UHGV virus genome: UHGV-0097969
Origin: a virus
DNA: 45,847 nucleotides
Reading direction: 5' to 3' (one strand)
A program made the position numbers and the translations under genes. The notes under the pieces were generated by a model, which was not told where the DNA came from, did not search any database, and saw only the letters and a list, made by a program, of their open reading frames with translations. Below, piece after piece: positions 1 to 39,772 of this stretch (positions within the stretch are counted from its first letter, which is position 1; the number at the start of each line of letters is the position of its first letter).

Positions 1-1346
1 TTTACCGTTTCCTGCAAACCGAGGTATTCGATAACGGCAGCAACGGTCGATTTCGCAAGAATATCCCGCCCGACTTTTGTCAGAGTTGCCAAGCTGGCGA
101 CATCATTCCCCGTAAAATACGGAAACCTGTCTGCCGCAGTAGCAAGCCCGGCCAGCGCCGTCAGGGTGGCATCTTTCGGTTGCTTACCCGCAAGCGCGTT
201 AGTCATGGTGGTCGCAAAATTCGGGTCGTTGCCCAACGCCGCAGCCAGCTCGTTTAGCGTATTCAGTGCGTCAGGCGACGAGTCCACGAGGGCAGCGATC
301 GCAGCCATAACATAAGCCGTGCTTGCGATCTGAGTATTGTTAGTACCTTTTGGCGCAGTTGGTGTTGTTGGTGTTCCGCTCAGCGCCGGACTGTTCAGGG
401 GCGCTTTCTTGTTCGTTTCATCCATTACCACCTTTACAGCTTTTGATGTCGCGGCCAGTGTTTCAGACGTGCTGTTGGTGGCGCTACTGAGCTGAACAAT
501 CCCTTTTCGCGCTGTGGTAGCGTCCTGTGCGGTGTATTTAGCGTTAGCAAGGTCATATGCTGCCTTTACCGCCTTTGGCGTTGCTGCCAGCGTCTCAGAA
601 TCGCTGTTAGTTGCGCTACTAAGCTGAACAATCCCTTTTCGCGCCGTGGTAGCGTCCTGTGCGGTGTATTTAGCGTTAGCCAGGTCATATGCTGCCTTAA
701 CAGCCTTAGGCGTCGCAGCAAGCGTTTCAGACGTGCTATTGGTGGCGCTGCTAAGTTGAACAAAGCCTTTTGAGGTTAAAGTTGCATCAGGATGATTACG
801 TGATTGCTCATGTTTCACAATGGCTTGCTTAAGCCGCTTTGCTGAAACAGCAAGGGAATCATCTGTACCTGCATCAATTTCTTGTTCATTAGCAAATCTT
901 GCAACCCCAACAACAGTTTCGGTCGCGGGAGGATTAATAAACTCAATATCACCAAATGTAATATTTTTAGTATCAAGAGTCTTAATTGCTATGTCACTTG
1001 ATATTAAAGCAATAGTAGATGATGCTTTATTTATTATTACTTGTTCTTGCGAGTATACAGCAAACAACGTTCCCTTATTTGTATACAATCCTATTGTATG
1101 GACAACATACTCATCTTTACTATCATCCTTCGCCGTTACATGAATTGTATCAGGGGAAACAACTTTGCCACCTATTGTGGTAAGTCGTTTTATTTCGTCT
1201 GTTATATTTGTCTGTGAGGTTGACGTGACATAATATCTACTACCTAAACCAACAGAAACAATCTCAACTTTATTTGTTCCTGTTTTGTTGGCATTAACCA
1301 ACTCCTGACGCCCGGCGTCAGTCATCGTAAATAATAATTTACTCAC
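1..1346 (-). CDS. tail fibre protein, P2 gpH / Mu S-like; N-terminal constant part only, C-terminus lies beyond the window start
   Basis: Probable GTG start at 1346 with AAGGAA 6 nt upstream (ATG at 1325 in frame); N-terminus MSKLLFTMTDAG resembles P2 H; conserved ...FPYFTGNDVASLATLTKVGRDILAKSTVAAVIEYLGLQETV at the crossover junction; open at window edge. Confidence 0.85.
   Translation of the reverse strand, partial: MSKLLFTMTDAGRQELVNANKTGTNKVEIVSVGLGSRYYVTSTSQTNITDEIKRLTTIGGKVVSPDTIHVTAKDDSKDEYVVHTIGLYTNKGTLFAVYSQEQVIINKASSTIALISSDIAIKTLDTKNITFGDIEFINPPATETVVGVARFANEQEIDAGTDDSLAVSAKRLKQAIVKHEQSRNHPDATLTSKGFVQLSSATNSTSETLAATPKAVKAAYDLANAKYTAQDATTARKGIVQLSSATNSDSETLAATPKAVKAAYDLANAKYTAQDATTARKGIVQLSSATNSTSETLAATSKAVKVVMDETNKKAPLNSPALSGTPTTPTAPKGTNNTQIASTAYVMAAIAALVDSSPDALNTLNELAAALGNDPNFATTMTNALAGKQPKDATLTALAGLATAADRFPYFTGNDVASLATLTKVGRDILAKSTVAAVIEYLGLQETV
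9..34. other. gix/cix-like invertase crossover site A (TTCCTGCAAACC GA GGTATTCGATAA) inside the tail fibre gene
   Basis: Two 12-bp half-sites around a central dinucleotide, matching the gix/hix/cix pattern as recalled; bases 1-24 are the exact reverse complement of 45824-45847. Confidence 0.6.
440..770. repeat. 132-bp in-frame tandem repeats (about 2.5 copies) inside the tail fibre gene
   Basis: Copies at 481-612 and 613-744 nearly identical, partial copies either side; encode 44-aa units (KGIVQLSSATNSxSETLAATPKAVKAAYDLANAKYTAQDATTAR). Confidence 0.85.
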
Positions 1347-21058: not shown

Positions 21059-22438
21059 CTACTTAATCAGCGGCCGGAAAGCCGCCAGCACATCATCAGA
21101 TCGTCCGATTGTTGAACCACCAGGCAACGGCAACTCAAACTCAAAACGAACAGCTTTCTCCAGACTCGCCCAACTAAGGGAATCATCGTTAATGACGTGC
21201 AAATACCAGCTCTTACAGTTGAATATTGACCGCTTAATCCTGAAACCATGTACACGACACAACTGCTTCACTTCATCATCAGAGTGAAACTTCTGGTAAA
21301 ACCAGTGCCCCTTCCGGTACAACGCGGTAAAACCGTTATGATCAATAAAATAAAGCCGGCTTTTGGAACTCGCCGCTTGTGTTTGCTTCAGGACTGTTTC
21401 CAGCTCTCCACGGCTACGACCAGAAAAGAATATTGACCCACCAGCTTTACACAGGCCTTTCAGAACCGTCAGAACGGACCATTCAGCCTCGACACTATCG
21501 ACCGAGTTCAAAACGCTATCGCAAATCACGTAGTCGTAACGCCCTCGCGTTTTTAAGTCGTCCACCAGCGTATCAATCATCCGGTTTGTTGCGGTCCTAT
21601 CCAGAGTGTTTCCAGCGCCCTTACGGCGGAAAAGCTCGAGATCATGCAGGTTATATCCCTTTGCCCTGAGCATTCGCGCGTAGTCTCCCTGCCCCGAACC
21701 AAAATCAATTCCTCTTGGCGTCTTGGCAATGATCGGGAGGATCAACGACTCATACAGGTTTGATTTCAGGCTGCCACCATTACGCAACCGCATAAGCTGC
21801 GCATACGTCTGGATGTATGTTGTTTTCTCCAGATGAGAATACTCAAATACACCATAAGTTTTATTCAGATAACTTTGGTATTTTTCCTTCTCAACATCAG
21901 GGATCACAAACACCGTTAGCGGTGTGCGCGTCATTTTCGCTGCTAATGCATACTGAGCACAGTGAATAACCTCACCAGACTGAGTAGCAACACAACCACC
22001 CCACGGACCATACTTGATAACCAGTTCCGCTATGTTCTTTCGAACATATGCCATTTTCGCGCGCATATTGCCTGAGATCTGGCTTGCCGATACCTGAACA
22101 AAACCATGCTTATCTTCCAGACCGGACACCCTGCAACGCTCATCTCCGCTATCAAAATCCGTTCCGTTATGCAGTTGGTTAAACCGAACTTCGTCGTATA
22201 CCGTCGTTTCACAGGGCAACACATACACCGCAGCACGCGTTATTCCCAACTTACGTAGCGCCTTCGTCCTTTGGTGTCCCGCCACCAGCAAATCGCCGCG
22301 CACTATCAATGGCTTCACAAGCCCCAGCTCCCTGACGCTTTCGGCCAGCCTCGCAAGATCATCCTCACCGATAAAACGCGGGTTATATTCCGCGCCGCGT
22401 AGGTGCGTTATGTCGTAATTCAGGTGAAGCATCAGCAC
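21059..22438 (-). CDS. ParB-like N-terminal domain fused to class I SAM-dependent methyltransferase
   Basis: N-terminus ...LLVAGHQRTKALRKLG; C-terminal IDFGSGQGDY... and YDYVICDSVL Rossmann motifs; no DPPY/NPPW motif seen. Confidence 0.6.
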   Translation of the reverse strand: MLMLHLNYDITHLRGAEYNPRFIGEDDLARLAESVRELGLVKPLIVRGDLLVAGHQRTKALRKLGITRAAVYVLPCETTVYDEVRFNQLHNGTDFDSGDERCRVSGLEDKHGFVQVSASQISGNMRAKMAYVRKNIAELVIKYGPWGGCVATQSGEVIHCAQYALAAKMTRTPLTVFVIPDVEKEKYQSYLNKTYGVFEYSHLEKTTYIQTYAQLMRLRNGGSLKSNLYESLILPIIAKTPRGIDFGSGQGDYARMLRAKGYNLHDLELFRRKGAGNTLDRTATNRMIDTLVDDLKTRGRYDYVICDSVLNSVDSVEAEWSVLTVLKGLCKAGGSIFFSGRSRGELETVLKQTQAASSKSRLYFIDHNGFTALYRKGHWFYQKFHSDDEVKQLCRVHGFRIKRSIFNCKSWYLHVINDDSLSWASLEKAVRFEFELPLPGGSTIGRSDDVLAAFRPLIK

Positions 22439-23055
22439 ACCTCCCCAGCCAGCAATGCGGATACAAATCCGATATAGCTGCCATTATCATCAACATAACG
22501 AGACACCGCGCAGTCAAAACGATCCGCTTCCTCATCCGTTGCCGGGATTTTATGACCTCCAAATGACAGGTACTGAACTTTTACGCCTGATTTGGCCTCA
22601 TCCTTCTCAAATGGGATATCCATACCCTCTGTGTCATCGTAGACCGCCGCACTCAATAAGTTATCCAGTTCGCGCTGAGTAAAACCAATTGAGTCCAGAG
22701 CAAAATCATCGGCCGCAAGATCTGCAAGCTCCGCGCTTAACAACTCTTCATCCCAACCAGCATTCAGCGGAATACGGTTGTCGGCCAGACGATATGCCTT
22801 CTTCTGATTCTCCGTTAGCCCAGCCAGAACAATGCAGGGAACATCATCCATCCCCAACTGAGTGGCCGCAGCAATTCGACCATGACCAGCAATTACAACG
22901 TTGTTCTCGTCTATCAGGATCGGATTAGTCCATCCGTACTCCTGTATGCTGGCAACAATCTGATCTACCTGCTCCACGGAGTGTGTGCGAGCGTTCTTTT
23001 CATAACCAATCAACACAGAAAGTGGTAAAGAAACCACATTAAGATGTTTTGTCAT
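22432..23055 (-). CDS. ParB-like nuclease domain protein (paralog of 19176-19766)
   Basis: 207 aa; ...VIAGHGRIAAA...QKKAYRLADNR...LNAGWDEELL, collinear with the 196-aa paralog. Confidence 0.65.
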   Translation of the reverse strand: MTKHLNVVSLPLSVLIGYEKNARTHSVEQVDQIVASIQEYGWTNPILIDENNVVIAGHGRIAAATQLGMDDVPCIVLAGLTENQKKAYRLADNRIPLNAGWDEELLSAELADLAADDFALDSIGFTQRELDNLLSAAVYDDTEGMDIPFEKDEAKSGVKVQYLSFGGHKIPATDEEADRFDCAVSRYVDDNGSYIGFVSALLAGEVC

Positions 23056-23300
23056 GCCGTTTATCCGCTAAAATCCCCTCGCTTGTGCAAGCAAGTGGGC
23101 CTCGGTTTGTATCCACGGCACCCTGTGGGTATGAATGACTGTCGTCAGGTCGCAACTGACGGCGGTCGCCCACCTTCCAGTAATAAAAAAGCCACCAGCA
23201 TTAACTCCACAGCGAGCTGGAGTTAATGAGGCAGCTTTGGTTTGCGCATTATCGCAGCCCCTGATAAGCACAAGAGCTGCTGTAATGCGTTACGCAGGGA

Positions 23301-23618
23301 TCAAACGGAGGCGGCCGTTTCGTCGTCTTCAAGTACCGCGCCTTCTGGCAAATCAACACAGGCAAAAACAGGGCAGCCTGGATAACGATCATCTTCCATC
23401 GCAATCAGCATCGACTCACCGAACCACTCTGTGGTAGCACGACCATCAGCCGCCTGATAGTGAATCAGATACTGGTTTTCGCCATTTGCATACTGAGCAC
23501 GGGCTTGAACTTCTCCCCACTCTTCACTGATACGCATTGTTACCAGTTGGGATAATTCAAACTTAAACGGAACAGACTCTGCACCAATGGCAATCGGTTT
23601 ATCTTCTTTCTTTTCCAT
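23301..23618 (-). CDS. hypothetical protein
   Basis: Likely ATG at 23618 with AGGTGA upstream (track start 23687); preceded by a terminator hairpin. Confidence 0.4.
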   Translation of the reverse strand: MEKKEDKPIAIGAESVPFKFELSQLVTMRISEEWGEVQARAQYANGENQYLIHYQAADGRATTEWFGESMLIAMEDDRYPGCPVFACVDLPEGAVLEDDETAASV

Positions 23619-23667
23619 AACATCACCTGAAAATAAAAAGCCCCGCGACACCGCGAGGCTGTAAGAG

Positions 23668-23820
23668 TTACTTTCGATATAAATCAAGGTGCATTTGCTC
23701 TCGCTTACGCCGAAAAGCTCTCTGCGCCACTAAGATGCGCCACAGGACACCAGCAATAACCACCAGCGAGAAACAAAACCACACGGCCATAATCACCAGA
23801 AAAATGCCAAGACCATTCAT
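23668..23820 (-). CDS. small membrane protein (50 aa)
   Basis: Hand-translated MNGLGIFLVIMAVWFCFSLVVIAGVLWRIL...; ATGA overlap with upstream ORF; terminator follows. Confidence 0.35.
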   Translation of the reverse strand: MNGLGIFLVIMAVWFCFSLVVIAGVLWRILVAQRAFRRKREQMHLDLYRK

Positions 23821-24023
23821 GAAACTATCCATTCTTCAATGAATATCTCCAGTAATGTCAAGAGATACGCCGTACCCAGCGCGGTTCCTACCGATATAGC
23901 TAAGACAAACCTCAAAGATAACGAGGTGTCTTTCGCTTTTCTCCAGACGTAAGCGCCAGCCAGAAATACCAACAAATCTCTTATTGGAAGCGGGAACCAG
24001 AACAAATCACTCGGCAAGTCCAC
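23817..24023 (-). CDS. small membrane protein (68 aa)
   Basis: Two hydrophobic segments; coupled to flanking ORFs. Confidence 0.35.
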   Translation of the reverse strand: MDLPSDLFWFPLPIRDLLVFLAGAYVWRKAKDTSLSLRFVLAISVGTALGTAYLLTLLEIFIEEWIVS

Positions 24024-24025
24024 GG

Positions 24026-24481
24026 TTATATCCTTCCATTCATTTTTATCGGGTGACCAGATAGCCTTACGCTGTTGAGCTGTAAAGCTCCGGTATCAAC
24101 TAACTGATCAACTAACATGATTAGAGCTTCATATTCAGACTGATAGCTAACCTGACGCATTCGACCGCCGTTGTTCTCCAGAATGTCGGCCACCTTTGCA
24201 GCCAACTCGCTTAGACAGGAGAACTTATTCCCATATATCGTTTTATACTCGCGCTTCTGGCATTCTTCGGCTTGCGGCTGGTTATCGAGAGCTATCAGCG
24301 ACCGATGGCTATCAAGGAAGTCCACAATCTCATTCAGGCACTCTTTAGCTGCCTCATCGTGACTTTTTCCGTATGCTTCATGGAGGACTTTCATCCTCAT
24401 CATTGCTCCGTCACATATAGTCGAAAGCGCGTAAAGCACATCACTAACCGACATTTCTTTTTTGGTGCTTGTCGAAGGCAT
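24026..24481 (-). CDS. hypothetical protein
   Basis: 151-aa ORF in the small-gene block downstream of repeat cassette a. Confidence 0.4.
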   Translation of the reverse strand: MPSTSTKKEMSVSDVLYALSTICDGAMMRMKVLHEAYGKSHDEAAKECLNEIVDFLDSHRSLIALDNQPQAEECQKREYKTIYGNKFSCLSELAAKVADILENNGGRMRQVSYQSEYEALIMLVDQLVDTGALQLNSVRLSGHPIKMNGRI

Positions 24482-24555
24482 CCCATGTTCTCCTTTGTCT
24501 GGATGTAAAAAAGCCCCGGCAATTGCCGAGGCTCGTTGTTCGTTATCGTTACGGT

Positions 24556-24756
24556 TTAATGCTCGCGTCGTCCGGCGACAACTTCGGATTTGTATTTCAG
24601 GTCGCCCAGCAAGAATTGCAGTTTAAGCATCTTTGCCGCCGTGTAGTTCCCTGATTCAACAACCTCTTTCATGAGGTCATAAACGGCCGCTACATCATCA
24701 GTCAGGAACTCTTTGCGTTGCTGCTCAGTCGCACGTTTGAAGGAAATACGCATCAC
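24556..24756 (-). CDS. hypothetical small protein
   Basis: 66 aa, ATGA overlap with upstream ORF. Confidence 0.35.
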   Translation of the reverse strand: MMRISFKRATEQQRKEFLTDDVAAVYDLMKEVVESGNYTAAKMLKLQFLLGDLKYKSEVVAGRREH

Positions 24757-25022
24757 TCATCATCTCCTGCCGCACATACAACCTCACAAAAAACATCAGC
24801 GGAATGTTTCTTTTTGAATGAATGGCGCTCAAAACCGCACTCAATATCAGGCGCAAAAACATCCACCACATACGGTCTTTCAGAATGTTTGTTTTCCCAA
24901 CGATAAACCGTAGTGACGTTGAAATGTTTTAACGCTTCACGGAACTCAACGCTGCCAGTCAGGTTTTTTGAGGTCAGGTATTGCAGGAGGTTTTTTACTA
25001 CTTCACGGTCTTGTACTTTCAT
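24753..25022 (-). CDS. hypothetical protein, first gene after repeat cassette a
   Basis: ATG at 25022 preceded by GGAG within the conserved leader. Confidence 0.45.
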   Translation of the reverse strand: MKVQDREVVKNLLQYLTSKNLTGSVEFREALKHFNVTTVYRWENKHSERPYVVDVFAPDIECGFERHSFKKKHSADVFCEVVCAAGDDE

Positions 25023-25138
25023 CGGGTTATCTCCGGTTTAACCAGGGCGGGTATCGCTCGGTTTCGGGTATAACCTTAGGAAATTTTTTCCCACCTGTAA
25101 AGCACTTTTTATATAAATCTATAATTATATAATTCTAT
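25023..25138 (-). promoter_or_regulatory. conserved promoter/leader cassette, copy a
   Basis: About 108 bp near-identical to 31667-31768 and 41761-41876; TTTACA-N17-TAAGGT promoter-like, conserved leader with SD, AT-rich octamers upstream. Confidence 0.5.
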
Positions 25139-25722
25139 GACAGTTGCCAGAGAGCATCATGCAACTGGATACCTCCGTTGCACTGGTTGCCCCAGCCATG
25201 CCAGCCATCAGGTAAATCACCGCGAGCAAACAGCTCAATACGAGGAACATCACCTAACAGTCTTACCAGCTTGTCACGAACCACATCAGGCTTCCGTGAA
25301 TGTTCCAGACGAGGCGATGTAAACGACTGAATGATCCCCGCATCAAGGCGGGTCGGCAGTTTGCCTTTTACCGCAAACAAGCAATCTTCACTGTTCGCAC
25401 GAGTCATATGCCCCATCCCCATCACCAGCTTATCTGGTTGTCGGCTACCACATTTGTTCCATGTAAAGCCCTTCATGGTCATAAGCCTGAATCCCCATGC
25501 TTTCACCACCAGCAACGCTTCTTCTGGCTGAGTCGGAACCCACCACATGGCCAACAAACACGATTCAGGATTAGCAAGCTGCCAGACAGGAATACGAGCA
25601 ATATCCTCAGCTTTCATCGTTGGATACTTAAAACCAGCGCCACGACTCCCATCCTTACACTTGTCTTTGTATTCCCAGGGGGGATCTGCATAAATCAGAT
25701 TAAACAATGCAATTGCCTCCAT
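25135..25722 (-). CDS. DNA N6-adenine methyltransferase, MT-A70 family
   Basis: N-terminal motif ...LIYADPPWEY... (DPPW). Confidence 0.75.
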   Translation of the reverse strand: MEAIALFNLIYADPPWEYKDKCKDGSRGAGFKYPTMKAEDIARIPVWQLANPESCLLAMWWVPTQPEEALLVVKAWGFRLMTMKGFTWNKCGSRQPDKLVMGMGHMTRANSEDCLFAVKGKLPTRLDAGIIQSFTSPRLEHSRKPDVVRDKLVRLLGDVPRIELFARGDLPDGWHGWGNQCNGGIQLHDALWQLS

Positions 25723-26028: not shown

Positions 26029-26104
26029 TGGTGGCCCCTACCGGATTTGAACCGATGACCGTGCGATTATGAGTCGCCTGCTCTAACCACTGAGCTAAGG
26101 GGCC
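26029..26104 (-). tRNA. tRNA with CAU anticodon (Ile2 or Met), CCA encoded
   Basis: Reverse complement GGCCCCTTAGCTCAGTGGTTAGAGCAGGCGACTCATAATCGCACGGTCATCGGTTCAAATCCGGTAGGGGCCACCA folds as a cloverleaf (7-bp acceptor, GCTC/GAGC D stem, TTCAAAT T loop); first half resembles ileX-type as recalled. Confidence 0.85.
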
Positions 26105-26273
26105 ATATTTGATTTGTTTGTCTGGTGTGGCGCCGCGTACGAAAATCCCAGCCAATAAATTCAGGATTTTTGGACGCGGCGGCATATCAGACAAACATGG
26201 TTGATGCGTGCGCTCATGAGAAAAGCGCATAGAATGTTGTAACTATATATTTATATAATTATAGAAATATATA

Positions 26274-28441: not shown

Positions 28442-29009
28442 CGCTTTGCTCTCCTGCGTCTCCTTTGGTGCGAATTCCAGCGGCGCGCTCGGCTTCACTT
28501 TGTTCCCAAAACCACTTGTGAAGCTCCATGAGCTTTTCGTCAATCGGTGCATATTTGCGATTCAAGTAGGCCTGAGCATCTTTCTCAGATTCGTCCGGCA
28601 ATTCGCCTGGGCCAAACAGTGTGTTATAAATCCATGCCAGTCCGCTTTTAGCGTCGCCAGTCGATTGCCATTCGATAATGGCAGCCTGCATGACCAGAAT
28701 GTTTTTCCCGATTAATAGGTCCAGTTCTTTGTACCTGTTGCGGATGTATGCATTCTCGCTTTGTAATTTTGCGTTGCGCTTCTCTGCGGCTTCCAGCTCA
28801 ACACGCAGCTTCCCTACCGTTAGCGCAATTTCCTCGTTCTCCTGGTCACGGCGTTTGATGTATTGCTGGTTTCTTTCCCGTTCATCCAGTAGTGCCAGCA
28901 CAACCTGAGGTGTGACTTTCATACGAAATGCCAGCAATTTTTGAGGCGTTGCTACTGTTTCAATTGCTACTGCTGCCTCACGCAGTGCCTGATAGTCAAT
29001 CTTGCTCAC
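28428..29009 (-). CDS. hypothetical coiled-coil protein
   Basis: 193-aa ORF, charged heptad-like middle region. Confidence 0.4.
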   Translation of the reverse strand: MSKIDYQALREAAVAIETVATPQKLLAFRMKVTPQVVLALLDERERNQQYIKRRDQENEEIALTVGKLRVELEAAEKRNAKLQSENAYIRNRYKELDLLIGKNILVMQAAIIEWQSTGDAKSGLAWIYNTLFGPGELPDESEKDAQAYLNRKYAPIDEKLMELHKWFWEQSEAERAAGIRTKGDAGEQSDEKP

Positions 29010-29695
29010 TGGTTGCCCTCCTGAATACGCTTAAACTCAATTACCCATACCCACGGGTTAGATAGCCAGTTCTCTTGCCCGTAAATACCGCGCCAGATAT
29101 CACCAAAGCCAACGCGATAAACAGCTTCCGGCGGTGTAATCTTGTACGTCGCCGGAGATGCGCCTTCTGCTTTAGCATCTGCCTCGCTCATGTCATGCAG
29201 CCGTTCCACACGCACGTCGGTAATTTCCAGCAAAATACGCGAAGCCCAGCGCGGCATGTGAATTGATGGACACCACCCGCCATCAAACTTTTCATTCACA
29301 GTGTGAGGTTTCCAGTCGGCATCATCGGGGATCGACCACAGGCCGTAATCACCAGGCTTTTGCTCGCAACTGGCTCGATAAATCCTTGCTGCGTTCTTCT
29401 CATCGCCACGACAAAGGTTGTCGTTCCAGTCCACACTGCAACCATCCTCATTGCCTAATATCGCCCACGCTTCACGGACCCATATGCGATCACCAACGTT
29501 ACCGAACGGGCATAAACCATGTTCAGGAGCATCCATAACGTGGGTATAGACACCATTGCGTTTCTTTGTCGGTTTACGGATAACCAGGCAGTTATCGGCC
29601 CTGACATTTTTTACAGGTCGGCGAGTCTGCGTCTTCCTTCCTTCAAGGATGGCCCTAACCATATCGTCATTAAAAACAACACCACGTTCTTTCAT
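29006..29695 (-). CDS. ASCH-like domain protein
   Basis: N-terminus ...MVRAILEGRKTQTRRPV... resembles the ASCH GxKTxxxR motif. Confidence 0.45.
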   Translation of the reverse strand: MKERGVVFNDDMVRAILEGRKTQTRRPVKNVRADNCLVIRKPTKKRNGVYTHVMDAPEHGLCPFGNVGDRIWVREAWAILGNEDGCSVDWNDNLCRGDEKNAARIYRASCEQKPGDYGLWSIPDDADWKPHTVNEKFDGGWCPSIHMPRWASRILLEITDVRVERLHDMSEADAKAEGASPATYKITPPEAVYRVGFGDIWRGIYGQENWLSNPWVWVIEFKRIQEGNQ

Positions 29696-29850
29696 TTAGA
29701 AGCCACCTTGTTCAATTTCCGGCGACAAGACACGCAATCATCAGGACTCTCAAAAGTGTCTGGCTCACGGTAATCACCAAAATACATCCAACGGCCGCAA
29801 ATGCTGGTTACTTCACCTTCATTAAAATAATGATGTTTATTCGCCTTCAT
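29692..29850 (-). CDS. small Cys-containing protein (zinc-ribbon-like?)
   Basis: Internal Met of track ORF 29692-29946; CxxC-like pairs. Confidence 0.25.
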   Translation of the reverse strand: MKANKHHYFNEGEVTSICGRWMYFGDYREPDTFESPDDCVSCRRKLNKVASK

Positions 29851-29879
29851 TGGCCTGACCCATCCGGCATTTTTCTTGC

Positions 29880-30245
29880 TCACTTCAACTCCTCCCGACG
29901 ACGTTCCTGAAGCTCTAGCATTGCGGCTCGGAAATCCTGCCACCATTCCTCATCTGCAACGGGGGTGTTTCGCTCCAGCACCTTGTCCGCATCAGCGATC
30001 AGGTTTGCCAGACTCTTGTCTGAAATCTTCGTTACCGGAGTCGTTGGTTGCTCAACCTGCCCGATAGGTTTTATCGTGCTCAAAAGGAGGCGACGGCTGG
30101 AAAGTGGCGACCCACAACGGCGCCCATCTTCCTTGCGATATGTTTCTTTCGGACCAACACACCAGGTTGTCGGCGTTTCGCGTAACTTCACTTTTTTCTC
30201 ACCATCAATGGTGATGATTATTCCGGTATGGGTTTTGATGCTCAT
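29880..30245 (-). CDS. hypothetical protein
   Basis: 121-aa ORF, 4-nt overlap with upstream gene. Confidence 0.35.
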   Translation of the reverse strand: MSIKTHTGIIITIDGEKKVKLRETPTTWCVGPKETYRKEDGRRCGSPLSSRRLLLSTIKPIGQVEQPTTPVTKISDKSLANLIADADKVLERNTPVADEEWWQDFRAAMLELQERRREELK

Positions 30246-30544
30246 GCCACAGCCCCTCTCAACGGCTTAACTTTGGCTAATAAGGTGTTAAACAACATGG
30301 AGTTAGGATTCATGCCAAATGGCAATTCCGGTTTAGCGGAGTAGTACAGGCAACCATTTATTTTCCTGGTTGTTATCTGTCCTTCGGCAACCATGCTTCT
30401 CAGTCTGCAACGCATAGAGTTCTGCGACACACCAATGTGCTCCGCGATTACGTCCACTTTTGAACATGGGTGATCGGTCAGGAAATTAATCACATCTTGG
30501 GGGTTAATAATTTTGCGTTTCATTGTCGAGGCGTCCTTATACAT
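30242..30544 (-). CDS. putative winged-helix DNA-binding protein
   Basis: 100 aa; AT-rich octamer motif directly upstream (30541-30562). Confidence 0.4.
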   Translation of the reverse strand: MYKDASTMKRKIINPQDVINFLTDHPCSKVDVIAEHIGVSQNSMRCRLRSMVAEGQITTRKINGCLYYSAKPELPFGMNPNSMLFNTLLAKVKPLRGAVA

Positions 30545-30592
30545 TTATATAATTCTATATACAGCGGGAGACATCCCGCCGTAGGCTTACTG

Positions 30593-31660
30593 TCAGGCTT
30601 TCAATAGCGATTCTTTCAGATATCGGGCATCAGCCAGGGCGTTTGGAGTAATCTTGCGAACCCATGCATTACGGGTTGGACTCCACTTAAAGGCGCGTGA
30701 TTTAAGCAGCGAACGAATGTTTGCCTCTGGTTTGCCAGGGAAATAAAACAGGATGCGGTTATCCTCTGGATCTATCTCCATAGAAAAGCCGTCGTATTCT
30801 TCGCGCTGTGCTCCTGTTACAGACTTGACCGATTCAAGCTCCTTAATACGGCTCTGTAGTCGTTTGATTTCGGCGTTATTGTTGCTCAGTGCGTATGAAG
30901 GGAATCCGATGCGCCCACAGAAATCTCCGGCCAGTAACTCTTTGGCTTCGCTTTCTGTAAACCTGAGATCGATTAATGCAGAAAGCTGCTGTATTTGGTC
31001 TTTTTTGTATTTGCGAATGGCCTTATTTGCGGCCTTCATTTTGACGTGTGACTTCATGCAGCCTTGCAGCTTACGAAGCAACTTAAATAGCGCATCAGGA
31101 TCATCAGACGAAATTCCATTACGACCAACACCTGCGGCTTTGCTCTCGTAGTGTGATGCTTTACTTTCGCATTCAACAAACGCTTTTCTGAATAACGCAT
31201 CAGCTTTAGACAAACGGCGGCGATGGCCTTTCGCGCTATAATGGTCAACTAAAATCGGCTGGCCTAACGGGATCACATCCAACAGGTCATGCGCTCGCTT
31301 ATGCGCTACCGCACCTTCTTTTCTGGCTTTTTCTGCACGAGCAATATATCGGGCAAGACGCGCGTTCTGGCGTTCCTGATAGGTGTTTACGTAATCATCT
31401 CCGCGCTGCTGCTGTTCAAGCCATGCTTTGCGCAGATCTTCTGTTACGTCCACCAGCTCCGCAGGGATACAACCTGTTTGGGCTTCATAAGAGTAACCAT
31501 CCTCATAGATGCGCCCATCGTCTTCAACAAAGAAAAAGGTTTCGTGCTCATCGCTTTTGACCATACGACCATTAACATGGCGTAATAGGTAGCCAGTATC
31601 AGTGCTCAACAGGCTGTTAGGGTTGTTGATCCAGTCAGAAATAATTACTTGTTTATTCAT
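30593..31660 (-). CDS. DUF3560-like protein, first gene after repeat cassette b
   Basis: ATG at 31660 (MNKQVIISDW...); motif ...IPLGQPILVDHYSAKGHRRR... resembles DUF3560; the track N-terminal extension is the translated repeat. Confidence 0.5.
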   Translation of the reverse strand: MNKQVIISDWINNPNSLLSTDTGYLLRHVNGRMVKSDEHETFFFVEDDGRIYEDGYSYEAQTGCIPAELVDVTEDLRKAWLEQQQRGDDYVNTYQERQNARLARYIARAEKARKEGAVAHKRAHDLLDVIPLGQPILVDHYSAKGHRRRLSKADALFRKAFVECESKASHYESKAAGVGRNGISSDDPDALFKLLRKLQGCMKSHVKMKAANKAIRKYKKDQIQQLSALIDLRFTESEAKELLAGDFCGRIGFPSYALSNNNAEIKRLQSRIKELESVKSVTGAQREEYDGFSMEIDPEDNRILFYFPGKPEANIRSLLKSRAFKWSPTRNAWVRKITPNALADARYLKESLLKA

Positions 31661-31666
31661 CAGATT

Positions 31667-31768
31667 TCTCCGGTTTAACCAGGGCGGGTATCGCTCGGTT
31701 TCGGGTATAACCTTAGGAAATTTTTTCCCACCTGTAAAGCACTTTTTATATAAATCTATAATTATATA
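31667..31768 (-). promoter_or_regulatory. conserved promoter/leader cassette, copy b (P_R'-like position after the Q-like gene)
   Basis: Near-identical to copies a and c; lies about 60 bp downstream of the Q-like stop. Confidence 0.5.
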
Positions 31769-31830
31769 TTTATAGATTTTCCGATATTCCCGATGCCTAC
31801 AAATCACCAAAACAGCTCAAAATGACACTT

Positions 31831-32208
31831 TCACTCTCTTCGTTTTTTCAAATAGTCGACAACATACGCCCTGGCTTTTGCCAGCTTCCGGCGATACTGT
31901 CTGAGACTAAGAGAAAGGGCGTGGGCTTTATCAATATGCGGTGCATTTATGTCGAGGCCCCGAATCTCCCACGCCCCGTATTCAATTCTGACAACCAGCG
32001 CCGCAGTCTCATCAACTACCGTGAGGGCCGTCACCGCTCCCTCGATACTGGTTTCCAGTGAGTCATTTGGTGCGCCGCCCCCTCCAGTAAACTGGCAGCG
32101 CGTAACCATCATCATTTCTAACATCGACGCGAAACCGCTACGGGCGTTGCAGCCATTGCGCACCCACAGCGCCCATAGCTCAAACAAGCTATCCAGATCG
32201 CGTCTCAC
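31831..32208 (-). CDS. late-gene antiterminator, Q-like
   Basis: 125 aa; N-terminal ...LFELWALWVRNG... resembles the P22 gp23/Q-like WGAW region; sits upstream of a late-promoter-like cassette. Confidence 0.45.
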   Translation of the reverse strand: MRRDLDSLFELWALWVRNGCNARSGFASMLEMMMVTRCQFTGGGGAPNDSLETSIEGAVTALTVVDETAALVVRIEYGAWEIRGLDINAPHIDKAHALSLSLRQYRRKLAKARAYVVDYLKKRRE

Positions 32209-32211
32209 TGT

Positions 32212-32544
32212 TCAGATCTCCCGTATCGTGACGGGATAAAGCGCCTCTACCTGCTTTTTCTTCATGATGTAGACGTCTGTTCGCACACCTTTAGTGTCGA
32301 CACAATCAATCGTCCCATCGTCATAAAACACCATGAAATCAAGTTTATAAACGACACCACCTGGCAGATGAAAAGGCACCTGCATAAGAAACGTCACAAC
32401 GCGGCCAGCTTTTCTCAGTAGCTTCAGTTCGCAGTAGTAATCAGCCTCTTTTTTGCTATCAAAAGCGATATCATCGACAACCGTTTTTTTATTGCCGTAT
32501 TTGCTTTTCCTTGTCGCTGGTTTGCGAAAGCCGGTATATCTCAT
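32212..32544 (-). CDS. DUF1064-like phage protein
   Basis: ...KYGNKKTVVDDIAFDSKKEADYYCELKLL... matches the DUF1064 signature. Confidence 0.55.
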   Translation of the reverse strand: MRYTGFRKPATRKSKYGNKKTVVDDIAFDSKKEADYYCELKLLRKAGRVVTFLMQVPFHLPGGVVYKLDFMVFYDDGTIDCVDTKGVRTDVYIMKKKQVEALYPVTIREI

Positions 32545-32945
32545 TTGGTATCCCCTGGTACTTCACCAAGACTAAGATCAAACCCAATTTCGTCTTTAAC
32601 TGACTGCGGCAACAGCTCCCACGTCTGCGCACACAAAAATTCATCTGTGCCATAACGCTCAACAAAGCGAGCACAATTACTCAGGGGAGGGTGACGAACG
32701 GCAATATGCGGAGGCACGCGCCCACCACCAGGCACAACACCGCGATGATGTGGTGCGCACAACCCAAAGCTATGGAAATGGCAATTCTCATCAACGCTGC
32801 CGTAATCAGGATCGTGATGTAGCTCCGTCCACAGCTCTGGATTCTCAATTTCACGGCCATCAATAATGCAAGCTATGCAACCCACGTGAGTGAGCACCGC
32901 TTGTATATAAAGTTTCTCTTTCTTCGTTGGTGTACGTCCGTTCAT
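32541..32945 (-). CDS. Cys/His-rich protein, possible HNH-like nuclease fold
   Basis: ...LHHDPDYGSVDENCHFHSFGLCAPHH... Confidence 0.3.
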   Translation of the reverse strand: MNGRTPTKKEKLYIQAVLTHVGCIACIIDGREIENPELWTELHHDPDYGSVDENCHFHSFGLCAPHHRGVVPGGGRVPPHIAVRHPPLSNCARFVERYGTDEFLCAQTWELLPQSVKDEIGFDLSLGEVPGDTK

Positions 32946-33178
32946 CAGCGCCCCTTACCATTGATAAAGAGGTTGAACTCGTTGATTAACTGGACATACA
33001 TGCTTCTGGCCGCGTAGTTCTTTGCCAGCTCTTTACGGGATGAGATCCCGCAAAACTCACGCAGAATCACAGAGGCCTCAGAACTGTTTGAAACGTTCTT
33101 CCCTGTTTTACTGGTCAGAAAGCACCAGAATTGGGGATTCTGGCAATGCATCGCAGCACCGCGAACATAACTACTCAT
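32945..33178 (-). CDS. hypothetical protein
   Basis: 77-aa ORF coupled to neighbours. Confidence 0.3.
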   Translation of the reverse strand: MSSYVRGAAMHCQNPQFWCFLTSKTGKNVSNSSEASVILREFCGISSRKELAKNYAARSMYVQLINEFNLFINGKGR

Positions 33179-33690
33179 TGATGGCCCCCGTCATTTCTGG
33201 TGCTTTTCACCGTGCGGCTTCTTAAAAACCTGCCATCACGAACAACAGACACATCTCGTTTACCCATCCTCATTTCACGGCGGTAACATTCAGAAAATGC
33301 CTCGTCCGGCATCATATAAATGCGACGCTTCGCCTCCGTATCCAGAAGGGAACGGCTTGGGGTTACATATAAAAACGACTCATCAATAGGGACAAAACCA
33401 CGAGCAAGAATTGCTGGCAGAATGCCAGGAAGAACGCAGAAAACAGCTCCACGATGCAGCAACATCTGGTACTCCATGACCTCCGTTATCCCCGTGACTA
33501 CTGTTACGGTGTCACGTCTGTTACGGCTGGCAACCAGTCGCTGCACACGTCCAATTTTCTGATCTACAGATAGATGTTTGCTATCGTTATCAATATGATC
33601 GATAACAAACCCTTTAATCGTTTGATCAAGGTAGTGCACCACCTTCGATTGAATCTGGTGATTATCACCAAAGAAGGCCAGAATCATCAT
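33175..33690 (-). CDS. hypothetical protein
   Basis: 171-aa ORF, 4-nt overlap with the Cro-like gene. Confidence 0.4.
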   Translation of the reverse strand: MMILAFFGDNHQIQSKVVHYLDQTIKGFVIDHIDNDSKHLSVDQKIGRVQRLVASRNRRDTVTVVTGITEVMEYQMLLHRGAVFCVLPGILPAILARGFVPIDESFLYVTPSRSLLDTEAKRRIYMMPDEAFSECYRREMRMGKRDVSVVRDGRFLRSRTVKSTRNDGGHQ

Positions 33691-34181
33691 TCCTCAAGCC
33701 TCCCAAGTGCTGAACGCCGGGCGTTGCTAATCTCCTTATGAATCAGCTCGATATCGCTGGAATCTTTATTCTTAAACTCCAGCATGGCAATCGCATCACG
33801 AACCTCTGAAACGGTTACGTGTGAGTGTTTCCAGCGAGCAATGAATCGCGGACCGCGTAGATTGCAACGCTCCGCAGGCATCCCCAGCTCAGAGAAAACC
33901 GCTTTCAGCCTTGATAAGCAGTTAACAGGGAGATTCCCTTTGATCTTGTTCTGCCGAACCGATGTGCCATCGCTACGCTGGCGCTGACGTTCGGCAAAAT
34001 CTGCCGCCCATTGCTGGACGTTAATCCGGCCTTCCGAATACGCCACCAGCAGCGTCAGGTTATCCGCACGAGGGAATCTCTCGAAGCGATACCAGGCACC
34101 AATCAGTGATGACGTAAAGCCAAACTTTCTGGCAACACCAATTTGGCCTCCATTCTCGTCAACCCACTCCTGAAAGGTCAT
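33687..34181 (-). CDS. Cro-like HTH regulator with C-terminal extension
   Basis: ATG at 34181 with GGAG upstream; Cro/YdaS-like N-terminus; divergent from the CI-like repressor. Confidence 0.5.
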   Translation of the reverse strand: MTFQEWVDENGGQIGVARKFGFTSSLIGAWYRFERFPRADNLTLLVAYSEGRINVQQWAADFAERQRQRSDGTSVRQNKIKGNLPVNCLSRLKAVFSELGMPAERCNLRGPRFIARWKHSHVTVSEVRDAIAMLEFKNKDSSDIELIHKEISNARRSALGRLEE

Positions 34182-34199
34182 TTAACGAACTCCAGTCAA

Positions 34200-34317
34200 A
34201 CCACGATATGTGGTATTAAAACCACATATCGTGAGTTTTTCAATGGGCGAAACAAAAAATAACCTTCTATTTGTGGTCCACCTCTCGTCTTACCATGTGA
34301 AAACCACTAAATGTGGT
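34200..34317. promoter_or_regulatory. operator cluster ACCAC-N5-GTGGT in the divergent immunity promoter region
   Basis: Perfect sites ACCACGATATGTGGT (34200-34214) and ACCACTAAATGTGGT (34303-34317), partial sites at 34221-34233 and 34272-34280. Confidence 0.55.
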
Positions 34318-34354
34318 AATGTATAAATAACCCACCATTCACGATTGATGAGAC

Positions 34355-35011
34355 ATGAAAAGCAACGACGAGAACATCAAGAAAGAAATAGGTCTGCGCA
34401 TTCAGACTCTACGGAAACAATCCGGCATGACTGCCGGAGATCTCCAGCAAGTCACTGGAATAGGCTTAAGCACCTTGCAGAACTATGAGGCCGGATTAAG
34501 ACAACCATCTATACCTGCCATCAAGAAAATCGCGCACGCCCTGAAAGCATCAGCGCCTTATATCGCGTGCTTAACAGATAACCCGTTCCCACCCCAGAAT
34601 ACTAACGCTCCTGTTATTCCTGGGCTTGTAGCTATAAAAAATGACATAGCATCGCACGCCGGAGAAAAGCCAGTGCTGGCGATAGAACAGGAGATTCTAC
34701 GAAGCAAGAACATCAACCCATCGTCTCTGTCAGTTCTCCAGAGCAACGATGAGTTAATGTCACCAACAATATCCCCAGGCTCCCAAGTCCTGATTAATAC
34801 AGACGATACAGAGATTCATGAGGGGATCTATGCCCTTGAAGACAGAAATGGCCTGGTTGTTTTGAGGCACTGTAGAGTCATACCGGGTGACAATGCTGTT
34901 ATGCTGTCAACCGAAAGGGATGCTGAAATGAACACTAAGCATCTGAATAACGAGGAATTTAAGCGTTATAAAGTTCTGGGCCGCGTAGTTAGTGTTGTCA
35001 ACTGGTTATGA
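34355..35011 (+). CDS. CI-like repressor (HTH plus S24/LexA-like C-terminal domain)
   Basis: HTH ...QSGMTAGDLQQVTGIGLSTLQNYEAG...; C-terminal domain of LexA/CI type. Confidence 0.8.
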   Translation: MKSNDENIKKEIGLRIQTLRKQSGMTAGDLQQVTGIGLSTLQNYEAGLRQPSIPAIKKIAHALKASAPYIACLTDNPFPPQNTNAPVIPGLVAIKNDIASHAGEKPVLAIEQEILRSKNINPSSLSVLQSNDELMSPTISPGSQVLINTDDTEIHEGIYALEDRNGLVVLRHCRVIPGDNAVMLSTERDAEMNTKHLNNEEFKRYKVLGRVVSVVNWL

Positions 35012-35103
35012 TACACAGCACGGCGAAAGCCGTGCATTTCTACGCTCAAAAAAACCACGCTTTGTGGTTTTGACAACATGTGAAAGTATAAAAGAGGCTA
35101 CGC

Positions 35104-35478
35104 ATGGAATTACATACAGCCAATAAAAACGAAACTCTGATCACTGCTGGAATCGAAATCCAAGCGTTGAACATAGCGATTGAGTGTATGTTATGCCAAA
35201 TCATTGATAATGAGAAAGATATCGACTGGATAGAATCTATCCTTCATCTGGCATCAGAACAAAAAGTCTGCCTCAAAACGGCCTTACAATACGATGTGCC
35301 AGCGGTATCGAAGCTGTGCCAGCCATTGATGGCATATAACAGGGCTATTATTTCTGTATGCCTCATGATTCTCGATGAAAACACCCCTCTTAGCGACCGC
35401 TCAGAAGCTGCTCTAACCCTCTCACGTAAACAGCGACAGCTAGCAAATCAACTGATATCAACGATAGCTGACCTCTGA
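35104..35478 (+). CDS. hypothetical protein downstream of the repressor
   Basis: AAGAGG 6 nt upstream of ATG; hairpin GCGGGC-taac-GCCCGC after the stop. Confidence 0.4.
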   Translation: MELHTANKNETLITAGIEIQALNIAIECMLCQIIDNEKDIDWIESILHLASEQKVCLKTALQYDVPAVSKLCQPLMAYNRAIISVCLMILDENTPLSDRSEAALTLSRKQRQLANQLISTIADL

Positions 35479-35500
35479 CTGCAAGCGGGCTAACGCCCGC

Positions 35501-35606
35501 TTATATGATTATAGATTTATATAATTATATAAAACACTTTTCATCAGCCAAAAAGTTGGTTATGCTTACCTCGTTCTATAAATATAGATTTATAGAATTA
35601 TATAAC
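35501..35606. repeat. AT-rich octamer arrays upstream of parA (candidate centromere/operator)
   Basis: ttatatga ttatagat ttatataa ttatataa at 35501-35532 and tatagatttatagaattatataa at 35580-35606; similar array at 36281-36314. Confidence 0.45.
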
Positions 35607-35613
35607 CAAACAC

Positions 35614-36282
35614 ATGGAGTCTCGACAAATGACTATCTCTGTAGGTATTTTCAACGGAAAAGGCGGCGTAACCAAATCAACAATTGCCCGTGCTTTAGCA
35701 GTTGCTTATGCAAAGGCCGGCTGGAATGTATGCCTGATCGATATGGATGTGCTTAACGGAACGGTAACGCGTTGGGTACAACGCAGAATGGCCAACAATA
35801 TCGAACCTGCAATCGCGGCGCAGCCGTGCGGCACACCATCACAAGTCCAGAAAATCATCGAATCAGAAGTATACGACCTGGTTATCGTCGATGGCGGTGC
35901 CTACGCATCTGAATCAGTACCGAAGCTCTCTGAATTTCTGGATATGGTTATTTTGCCAACCAGATTCTCTACCGATGACCTGGAAACCACCGTTAACACA
36001 GCTCATGGCATCGTTAAAAAGGGTGTGCCAATCAAGAAAATTTGCATGGTGTTCTCAGGCGCGGCTGAAAACGAAGCCGACTACATTGAAGCCCAAGAGT
36101 ACCTGGCTAATACGCCATACTTTGTTGTCGATAAGTACATTCCCCACAAGCCAGCTCTGAGCAAAGCTCAGGATAAGGGCTTAAGCCTCATTGAGTGCTC
36201 ATACGTTGCGCCACGCAAAAAGGCAGACGACGTTATTCAGGGGATTATCAACCAGCTTGAGGCTCTGACTACTGCCGCGTAA
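35614..36282 (+). CDS. parA: ParA/ParF-type partition ATPase (type Ib)
   Basis: Deviant Walker A GIFNGKGGVTKST; about 220 aa; probable true start ATG at 35629 with GGAG upstream. Confidence 0.85.
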   Translation: MESRQMTISVGIFNGKGGVTKSTIARALAVAYAKAGWNVCLIDMDVLNGTVTRWVQRRMANNIEPAIAAQPCGTPSQVQKIIESEVYDLVIVDGGAYASESVPKLSEFLDMVILPTRFSTDDLETTVNTAHGIVKKGVPIKKICMVFSGAAENEADYIEAQEYLANTPYFVVDKYIPHKPALSKAQDKGLSLIECSYVAPRKKADDVIQGIINQLEALTTAA

Positions 36283-36325
36283 TATATAATTATAGTTTTA
36301 TAGATTTATATAAGAGGGGATACAC

Positions 36326-36574
36326 ATGGCCGCACCATCAAAACCACCAAAGAAGAACAGCAAAGGCGTACCGCCATCGATCGAACAACCGCAGGTTTTC
36401 GACCCGACTGAAACGCCAACCAGAACCAAATCAGGTGGGGCACAAATGGCGTTTAACGTCGACCCTGAATTTAAACGTGAGTACAAAACATTCGCCAGCT
36501 CAATGGATATGTCATTGAAAGAAGTGCTGACAAAATCTTTTGAGTTACTCAAGGCTCAATACAACCAGAAGTAA
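36326..36574 (+). CDS. ParG-like ribbon-helix-helix centromere-binding protein
   Basis: 82 aa; flexible basic N-terminus then RHH-like ...QMAFNVDPEFKREYKTFASSMDMSLKEVLTKSFELL; immediately after parA. Confidence 0.55.
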   Translation: MAAPSKPPKKNSKGVPPSIEQPQVFDPTETPTRTKSGGAQMAFNVDPEFKREYKTFASSMDMSLKEVLTKSFELLKAQYNQK

Positions 36575-36639
36575 GAGAAGGTGACGGCCTCCAGCGCCAA
36601 CTGTTGGCCGTCGCGACACAACAAGGGGAATTTGTTATG

Positions 36640-36786
36640 TCCGAACAACAATATACACGGTTACTGAAAACTCGTCTAACCGACCTCAAACGGCTGCAAG
36701 CTGGTTGCTTATTTGCCCTGCTATCTACCAGACCAGAATGGGTACGTGAAGCAGTTCTGAAAGGCTTAATGCGCTCCAGCGTTTAA
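36640..36786 (+). CDS. hypothetical small protein
   Basis: ATG with AAGGGGAA upstream (track ORF starts 36604). Confidence 0.3.
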   Translation, partial: SEQQYTRLLKTRLTDLKRLQAGCLFALLSTRPEWVREAVLKGLMRSSV

Positions 36787-36795
36787 ATTCAACCA

Positions 36796-36819
36796 TAAAA
36801 AAGGCCCCCGAAGGGGCCT
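36796..36819 (-). terminator. intrinsic terminator between convergent units
   Basis: AGGCCCC-cgaa-GGGGCCT stem with T-run on the minus strand. Confidence 0.5.
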
Positions 36820-36824
36820 AATCG

Positions 36825-36947
36825 CTACTTGCTGCTAATGTTTATCGTCACATTCAGAGCGTTATCAGTAATCTTCCAACCCTCCCCATGTGGCGTAAAC
36901 AAAGCTCCAGTAACAACGATAAAAATACACATGTAGTATTTTTTCAT
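36825..36947 (-). CDS. small hydrophobic peptide (40 aa), putative
   Basis: MKKYYMCIFIVVTGALFTPHG...; AAGGG SD; terminator directly after the stop. Confidence 0.3.
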   Translation of the reverse strand: MKKYYMCIFIVVTGALFTPHGEGWKITDNALNVTINISSK

Positions 36948-37261
36948 TGTGTGGCCCTTACAGGCCGTTTCACGGCATCCCCACCGACGAAAATGACGCG
37001 AGAGCAAGCACGCTGTTTGTGCCTGCGTGGTACGGCAAGTGGATAATCCTTTCCTGAAAGTCAGTGCCCGGGTGCGAATCGGCGGAAAGGCCCCAAGCCA
37101 TATTACACGTCATACCCTTCATAATGAAGGAATAAAAAACGCTTTTATTACATAAGATTACACGTAAATAAGTTAAAAACCTTCATTTTGCATGAGCTAA
37201 TGAGCTAAATTTTTTTATATGAATAGTGGACTATTCACCTCAGTTGGGTAAGAATGTAGTT

Positions 37262-37365
37262 GCTGTTTGTGCTTGCGTGGTTGTATTAGTACAACGACGT
37301 TATGCTGAAAGGACCGCGAATCCGATCAGCACGAAAGAACCGTCCTCAAAAGGACGGTTTTTTTG
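37262..37365 (+). ncRNA. candidate small RNA (about 100 nt)
   Basis: Promoter-like TGGACT-N17-AAGAAT (37227-37255), strong terminator ACCGTCCT-caaa-AGGACGGT plus T6 at 37339-37365; 3' end overlaps the stop of the convergent HTH gene. Confidence 0.35.
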
Positions 37366-37918
37366 TTTCTCCCCCTTCCTTCCCAAATGATTCAAATGTT
37401 AATGAGAGTGAATCATTTGATATGTTCGATTTAGCGCCGTTATCGACCCAATTTCTGTATGCTTCATCACAACAGTACCTTACAGCAGTTGGAATAACAG
37501 GAGAGCCGCCCAGAAATGAAAATCCCATTGAGCTTATGCTAATTCTTTCGAATGGCCTATTTCTCAATGCTTCAAATCCCTTGCTGTTGAAGTAACTCAG
37601 CATCAGAGGTAAAAGGTTATCCTCGTCTTGACTGATTGTTCCCGGGAAAAAGTAGTAACCATGGCGATTAAATTCGGGAATCAGTTTTTCTACCAACAAC
37701 ATGAAATTCATTGGGGTAATATTAAGGGCAGAGCAAGCACCAAAAAGAGCATCAACCGTTAATACAGACTGTCCGTTCTCTATCTTTGTCCATGCGTTTG
37801 GTGTTTTTCCAGCAGCTTGAGCCAGCACTCCTTGATGCACACCTCTTTCTAGCCTAAGTTCTTTTATGATCATTAGGTGGATTGTTGAAAAACATGAGTT
37901 TTTTGACGTTTCAGTCAT
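37346..37918 (-). CDS. HTH (XRE-type) regulator with C-terminal domain of unknown function
   Basis: Likely ATG at 37918 (track 37975); divergent from the antirepressor operon. Confidence 0.5.
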   Translation of the reverse strand: MTETSKNSCFSTIHLMIIKELRLERGVHQGVLAQAAGKTPNAWTKIENGQSVLTVDALFGACSALNITPMNFMLLVEKLIPEFNRHGYYFFPGTISQDEDNLLPLMLSYFNSKGFEALRNRPFERISISSMGFSFLGGSPVIPTAVRYCCDEAYRNWVDNGAKSNISNDSLSLTFESFGKEGGETKKPSF

Positions 37919-38056
37919 TTTTTTATCCCCATATTGAATTTTTTCCTTGTTCCCAACTTTAACAAAACACCACAACTCAGGATTGAGTCATTCCCTACAG
38001 GAACTATACATTCCCGTATTTGGTATATCAAGAAAATTAAAAGCTCGGCATTCAAA

Positions 38057-38071
38057 CCCACACTATGTGGT
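38057..38071. promoter_or_regulatory. operator-like site CCCAC-N5-GTGGT upstream of the antirepressor operon
   Basis: One mismatch to the ACCAC-N5-GTGGT sites at the cI/cro region; sits about 25 bp upstream of a TTGACA -35. Confidence 0.4.
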
Positions 38072-38094
38072 TTAGTCTGTTAAAATCCGCCGTA

Positions 38095-38203: not shown

Positions 38204-38368
38204 TGCGTAAAGCACTGCTACACCCAAATTATGGTGGGGCGTGCGGGGGAGTCGTAAGACTCGCCGGTTCGTCATTGTGTCCGGTAGTTCCAACCCAGCA
38301 CGTCTCACCACCCAATGATTGGAACCTGACGGTGGTGAGTATCCTTAACCTTTAAGGGAATCATCACA

Positions 38369-39738: not shown

Positions 39739-39772
39739 AACAAAGCGCCCGATTTGGGCGCTTCTTCAATTC

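Follow-up and report, generated by a model that had tools for sequence, protein, structure and literature searches.

The window analysed here, a stretch of 45,847 nucleotides, very probably represents the full invariant backbone of a circular E. coli phage-plasmid of ~48.7 kb, most likely broken during assembly by mixed orientations of an invertible tail-fibre segment. In close relatives of this element the segment inverts. The switch is of the Gin/Cin/Pin/Hin kind, and the finding, which joins textbook biology with an assembly artefact, implies no new mechanism.

As a whole, the window is one SPAdes-style contig of a metagenome assembly (ERZ1745007 NODE_355, 77.97x), for which positions 28557-45847 were checked and found identical. 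The element has a contractile tail of the P2 type. It carries genes for terminase, portal, capsid, sheath, tube, tape-measure and a P2-type baseplate, together with plasmid genes for ParA/ParB, a toxin-antitoxin pair and the following replication protein:

44033-45013, minus strand: IncFII-type RepA (PF02387, E=1.3e-43; repA is annotated in the relatives)

RepA shows the element to be both a phage and a plasmid.

The two termini of the window were read directly and compared with each other and with the crossover sites of Mu. The features found at the ends are:

1-25, no strand: arm A of the inverted repeat, the inner (segment-side) part of the repeat
45823-45847, no strand: arm B of the inverted repeat, the exact reverse complement of 1-25
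9-34, plus strand: crossover site A, gix-like, 26 bp (TTCCTGCAAACCGAGGTATTCGATAA), core GA at 21-22
45814-45839, minus strand: crossover site B, gix-like, 26 bp, core at 45826-45827

The terminal repeat (TTTACCGTTTCCTGCAAACCGAGGT in arm A) is perfect over 25 nt and extends to 28 nt with one mismatch (28 nt and 96% by the repeat finder). The original prediction had placed a perfect inverted repeat at both ends, which was borne out, and had given its length as 24 nt, which is corrected here to 25 nt. The chance of a 25-nt perfect match exactly at both termini is of the order of 4^-25; the repeat is real and far above chance. Each end also contains the predicted 26-bp gix-type site. Mu gixL and gixR both read TTCCTGTAAACCGAGGTTTTGGATAA (taken from AF083977); site A differs from them at 3 of 26 positions (23/26 match) and site B, read as the reverse complement of 45814-45839, at 4 of 26 (22/26 match), and the central GA is common to all of them. 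When the window was scanned for the 17-nt segment-side-plus-core motif TTCCTGYAAACCGAGGT with up to 3 mismatches tolerated, it was found only at 9-25 (plus strand) and 45823-45839 (minus strand), two matches where 0.10 were expected, a number reached in none of 100 shuffles. Arm A ends at the TTTACCG base at which the 34-bp inverted repeat of the Mu G segment starts. Site B had been predicted to lie just upstream of the invertase, and it does, with the invertase ATG (45749) 65-90 nt downstream. In two relatives, L018 and L019 (GCA_036480075.1 and GCA_019212645.1), the tail-fibre-side site reads ACCTCAGTTTGCAGG, with a C-to-T change beside the GA core (position 12 of 26); on the invertase side, the site has stayed the same in both.

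The left end of the window falls within a tail-fibre gene:

1-1346, minus strand: constant N-terminal part of a P2 H-like tail fibre (PF03406, E=1.6e-61)

This reading frame begins at GTG 1346, the start annotated in relatives, or at ATG 1325, reaches window base 1 without a stop codon and is without a C-terminal receptor-binding cassette. Its translation on the minus strand ends ...AKSTVAAVIEYLGLQETV where the frame runs off base 1. The constant part carries Pfam Phage_fiber_2 repeats, P2 gene H is 87.6% identical to window 1-639, and baseplate genes resembling P2 I/J lie next to it in the window. Site A had been expected to lie inside this gene at the ...IEYLGLQETV junction. The translation places it exactly there, with the constant part of the fibre outside the segment and ending ...IEYLGLQETV within site A.

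The right end of the window carries the recombinase gene and a putative control element:

45195-45749, minus strand: DNA invertase, 184 aa, small serine recombinase with Ser9 (PF00239 and PF02796)
45665-45727, minus strand: candidate recombinational enhancer with the Fis-like 15-mers GTGTCAACTTTTGAC and GTTCAGGATGTGACC, from a scored scan

The invertase contains a resolvase catalytic domain (PF00239, E=3.3e-44) with the motif YARVS9T, followed by HTH_7 (PF02796, E=2e-14). It matched Mu Gin (PDB 3UJ3) over residues 2-181 with E=4.5e-62, and γδ and Tn3 resolvases matched far less well; of Hin, only the 52-residue DNA-binding domain was matched in the PDB search (E=8.5e-07). Judged by its sequence, the protein is an intact Gin homologue. 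Hin residues Gln151, Arg154 and Leu155 are uniquely conserved in Fis/enhancer-dependent invertases (McLean et al., PMC3798978), and alignment gives Q150, R153 and L154 (WEQIGRL) as their equivalents in the window. Basic residues 47, 48 and 51 are also among the Hin contacts to Fis or the enhancer (PMC3798978); helix B reads LDKLLK in the window versus LKRALK in Hin/Gin, so that two of the three basic residues are kept and one is Asp. A small serine recombinase with a helix-turn-helix, two inverted 26-bp sites with a 2-bp core and the Q/R/L residues were all found together in the window.

In the known systems, the enhancer is ~65 bp long and lies ~100 bp from one site (PMC3798978), with two Fis sites spaced by ~48 bp. 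About 107 bp separate the candidate enhancer, which falls within the 5′ end of the invertase gene, from the site B core, and the Fis-like 15-mers of the candidate at 45713-45727 and 45665-45679 are 48 bp apart; the motif is loose and falls in a conserved coding region. The corresponding positions at ATG+28 and +77 also score in Mu gin, a likeness confounded by the loose motif and by coding constraint. When a strict AT-rich Fis motif was used for the scan, no convincing pair was seen around the position at which an enhancer would be expected. Because the same region also encodes the conserved catalytic motif (RVST...DQ), the enhancer call is confounded, and the element is given here as a candidate.

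The DNA that would join the two ends of the window was found in complete relatives. Over its full length, the window is collinear with the E. coli plasmid pHN68-3 (97-99.9% identity), base 1 of the window corresponding to plasmid position 22433 and base 45847 to plasmid position 25344. The only pHN68-3 DNA without a window counterpart is 22434-25343, a block of 2,910 bp bounded by both copies of the 25-nt repeat. The window and this segment add up to 48,757 bp, compared with 48,743 bp for pHN68-3. Collinearity was also seen with the ATCC 25922 plasmid and with Yersinia phages vB_YpM_39, vB_YpM_41 and vB_YpM_44. The complete relatives are circular molecules of 48.1-49.7 kb and are continuous across both window ends, in agreement with the predicted circular molecule plus invertible segment. 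The block between the sites measures 2,910-3,061 bp (sizes of 2,910, 3,005, 3,024, 3,030, 3,048 and 3,061 bp were seen), within the 2-5 kb that had been proposed. In every complete relative examined, its order was a fibre C-terminal cassette, a chaperone, an opposed chaperone and an opposed C-terminal cassette, with chaperones of 528 or 534 nt. The two opposed cassettes, each with its own chaperone, are absent from the window and present in all of these relatives, as the original prediction had anticipated. The segment side of both sites, which faces out of the window, faces the same way in all complete relatives. The cassettes are highly mosaic, with phages 39 and 44 only 67-84% identical over parts of the segment.

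When the window fibre frame was joined in silico to the pHN68-3 segment, the fusion was in frame in both orientations. The resulting proteins were 741 aa (...LGLQETVNKAGNAVQ...) and 760 aa (...LGLQETVNQASGALQ...) long, and their C-termini differed. Going by these relatives, the molecule in this sample would have carried a segment of this kind, present in a mix of orientations.

The comparison with relatives also bears on two other readings of the window ends. A perfect inverted repeat exactly at both termini would also be seen if a linear replicon or a transposable element truly ended there. However, the ends sit in the middle of the tail-fibre reading frame, the repeat is a recombinase crossover site common to Mu, and the relatives are circular and run on without a break across both ends; the linear-replicon and transposon-end readings are ruled out by this collinearity, and we give them almost no weight. 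It is just as improbable that the segment was lost, leaving a circle of 45.8 kb whose abutting sites defeated the assembler. Placed end to end, the termini would indeed form a perfect 50-bp palindrome, and nothing direct favours the loss beyond that. On the other hand, serine invertases acting at inverted sites invert and do not delete (PMC3798978), and the tail fibre would be left without a receptor-binding domain and chaperone. Moreover, none of the complete relatives inspected was without the segment, and the contig has no terminal direct overlap of the kind that SPAdes leaves on closed circles. The preferred reading is that of a backbone from which an existing segment was separated in assembly.

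Among relatives, the segment was seen to invert. The ATCC 25922 plasmid is available in two assemblies, CP158444 and CP009073 (both 48,488 bp), which were compared over 9.9 kb and differed only by an exact 3,048-bp reverse complement. In this plasmid the two sites differ by one base (G/A, equivalent to window base 15), which travels with the segment, and the flanks from base 26 outward are fixed. Since the difference at base 15 moves and the bases from 26 onward stay, the exchange point is confined to window bases 16-25, an interval that includes the core GA (21-22). For nine plasmids that encode the window's exact invertase protein, the fetched DNA covered the segment together with both sites, and seven of these plasmids carry the 2,910-bp segment. 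The orientation was the same in six of these seven (pHN68-3 and five others, at 98.9-99.0% identity), and the segment of L017 is 99.0% identical to the reverse complement of that of pHN68-3. Queries made as chimeric junctions showed both types of invertase-side junction in finished E. coli plasmids, four plasmids matching one type at 97.5% or more and two plasmids matching the other at 99.3% or more. Both orientations, as had been predicted, are thus present in independent assemblies of one strain and among plasmids sharing an identical invertase. The pair vB_YpM_39 and vB_YpM_44, in which the chaperone sizes are swapped, was also considered as a simple flip and was rejected, BLAST showing mosaic cassettes of 67-84% identity.

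We propose that the tail-fibre gene is split by a Mu-G-type switch, its constant N-terminal part of 440-odd codons ending in site A. The segment of ~2.9-3.1 kb absent from the contig would carry two opposed C-terminal receptor-binding cassettes with their chaperones. The invertase would synapse the two inverted 26-bp sites, cut at the central GA, rotate the half-sites and flip the segment; host Fis, acting on the putative enhancer in the 5′ end of the invertase gene, would probably assist. With each flip, the constant part of the fibre would become joined in frame to one of the two cassettes, and this cassette swap would be expected to switch the host range of progeny virions. If both orientations coexisted in the sample, the de Bruijn graph would branch at the last shared base, which is the inner edge of the inverted repeat, and the assembler would emit the backbone as a linear contig with the copies of the repeat at its ends.

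Mixed orientations are the simplest cause of the break, and the positions at which the contig stops are consistent with them. The assembler read through perfect repeats of 99 bp or more inside the window, indicating that a 25-nt inverted repeat alone would not break the contig. In metagenome mode, SPAdes uses k-mers up to 55 by default. With k-mers of this length, a repeat of 25-28 nt does not branch the graph on its own; the sequence beyond the shared stretch has to continue in two different ways. In pHN68-3, the segment ends differ from each other already at the first base after GGTAAA (c versus t), and this is where the contig stops at both ends. Three further metagenome assemblies break 30 nt or less from site B: ERZ28647623 (scaffold of 45,422 bp), ERZ28535840 and ERZ28661454 (scaffold of 46,426 bp).

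The main rival is that the contig was broken by co-resident variants of the phage-plasmid with different cassettes, instead of by flipping within one population. Such a strain mixture would suit a metagenome assembly as source, and the cassettes are very mosaic, with segment lengths that vary among relatives; cassettes also occur in ~490 E. coli chromosomes, so that unrelated prophages could add branches to the graph. Against a strong mixture, the backbone is a single unbroken 45.8-kb contig at 78x although parts of it vary by 2-3% between relatives. Neither the invertase nor either site is damaged, both orientations are seen in clonal cultures of relatives, and both ends of the contig stop where the two ends of one pHN68-3-type segment diverge. 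We consider a mixture of variants unlikely, and flipping of one segment within a population is the explanation that we adopt.

The arrangement was compared with known inversion systems, and the closest in layout is the Mu G segment, which has the same order of constant fibre, gix, cassette with chaperone, opposed chaperone with cassette, gix and invertase. In Mu these elements are S, U (528 nt), U' (534 nt), S'v and gin. The pHN68-3 segment is 92% identical to Mu over 2,029 bp covering U, U' and S'v, whereas its first ~880 bp, the Sv-equivalent cassette, are unrelated to Mu Sv. Mu further differs in that its constant part is Sc and not P2 H-like, its inverted repeat is 34 bp long compared with the 25 perfect nt of the window, and it is a transposable phage, whereas the carrier here is a phage-plasmid with an IncFII RepA. 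Among the Mu-like phages sampled, the closest (LC727895, whose insert is annotated as Mu-like) had 58% amino acid identity to the invertase by tblastn. Grundy and Howe are said to have found in 1984 that the two orientations of Mu G give different host ranges, and the annotation of the Mu record likewise gives a host-range difference between orientations.

The C segment of P1/P7 with Cin, and the 'pin' system of SJ46, are likewise invertible fibre segments with an adjoining serine invertase in a plasmid prophage. Salmonella phage SJ46, a P1-like phage-plasmid, is 89.8% identical at the nucleotide level over 607 bp covering the invertase gene and site B, and its invertase is the closest outside the window's own family. 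The P1 C segment has inverted repeats of ~0.6 kb, and P1-like elements are ~90-100 kb long with a different tail and replicon. In P2, genes H and G are fixed and are not known to have an invertase or invertible segment; in the window, by contrast, the H-like shaft is joined to a Mu-type switch. Hin flips a promoter and not coding cassettes, but Hin/hix and e14 Pin share with the window a small serine recombinase with a C-terminal helix-turn-helix, 26-bp sites and a 2-bp core, as well as the Q/R/L Fis-contact residues described above; their enhancer lies ~100 bp from one site, a distance similar to that of the candidate in the window (PMC3798978). Tail-fibre inversions have been called a well-known phenomenon (PMC5903667), and tail-fibre proteins are among the annotations significantly enriched at the targets of predicted programmed inversions (PMC9881135).

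Several other features were noted in the window. Rfam matches to isrK and to C4 antisense RNA (38130-38202 and 38227-38315, both plus strand) lie directly upstream of an ORF6N/Rha antirepressor-like gene (38557-39738, plus strand), which makes up an immunity module of the P1/P7 immI type, here in a phage whose tail is P2-type. The lineage combines this P1-type C4/antirepressor module with the P2-type tail and the Mu-type G switch. Three near-identical promoter/leader cassettes of ~115 bp were found on the minus strand at 25022-25138, 31660-31774 and 41760-41876, each ending exactly at an ATG (of an 89-aa ORF, a DUF3560 protein and a 126-aa ORF). Their order is an AT-rich TATAGAATTATATAATTATAGATTTATATAAAAAG block, TTTACA-17 nt-TAAGGT and a GGAGA ribosome-binding site, and the copies at 25030 and 31667 share a perfect repeat of 99 bp or more. 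AT-rich imperfect palindromes (TATAGATTTATATAA / TTATATAATTATAGA) occur at 26237-26273, 35496-35605 and 36281-36326 and in the three leaders. By analogy with the P1 C1 operators, these scattered palindromes may be dispersed operators for a repressor (the XRE-family protein at 34355-35011). A full-length Rfam match to the ryfA sRNA was found at 36797-37095 on the minus strand (134.6 bits versus a gathering score of 80), within 36574-37302 and between the small ORFs after the parA-like gene and the next ORFs. A single tRNA with anticodon CAT (26029-26104, minus strand) is called Met by ARAGORN, and RefSeq gives tRNA-Ile for its pHN68-3 homologue.

In 36 blocks of a public collection, the contigs that carry the exact invertase protein are just 2-5 kb long. 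Site B is ~4 kb from the leader repeat at 41757-41876, and from this spacing many short-read assemblies probably break at both, isolating a fragment with RepA and the invertase. A 94,204-bp record of ATCC 25922, NZ_CP032086.1, contains the element with two copies of the invertase region, which may reflect a dimer or a misassembly.

For sequence collections, the finding explains "linear" contigs of 45-46 kb with inverted-repeat ends and a truncated fibre gene, namely that of this element and those of at least three public metagenome assemblies. Completeness, circularity and host-range predictions made from such contigs are wrong unless the ~3-kb segment is restored. An active inverton can be flagged cheaply by a terminal inverted repeat that matches the gix/hix/cix consensus.

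Of 5,426 complete E. coli genomes, 82 carry a related element, nearly always as a circular plasmid of ~48-50 kb; the reference strain ATCC 25922, with its 48,488-bp plasmid, is one of these 82. Further relatives were seen in E. albertii and in Klebsiella aerogenes and Salmonella plasmids. Three relatives, the Yersinia phages vB_YpM_39, vB_YpM_41 and vB_YpM_44 (circular, ~49 kb), have been deposited as phages, and related phages have been propagated on Yersinia pestis. That the relatives include plaque-isolated phages indicates that the family makes virions. An assignment to the pSLy3 group proved wrong, since pSLy3 belongs to the SSU5 supercommunity, a different group. In the searchable literature on the Yersinia phages, the ATCC 25922 phage-plasmid and invertible segments of phage-plasmids, the family and its switch were not described. 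It is conceivable, and we suggest it tentatively, that these elements form an uncharacterised phage-plasmid group in which cassette flipping and frequent cassette swapping would govern the spread of a plasmid replicon across genera. With this family, a widespread E. coli phage-plasmid joins the elements that carry a working Gin-type inversion switch, one that probably acts on host range.
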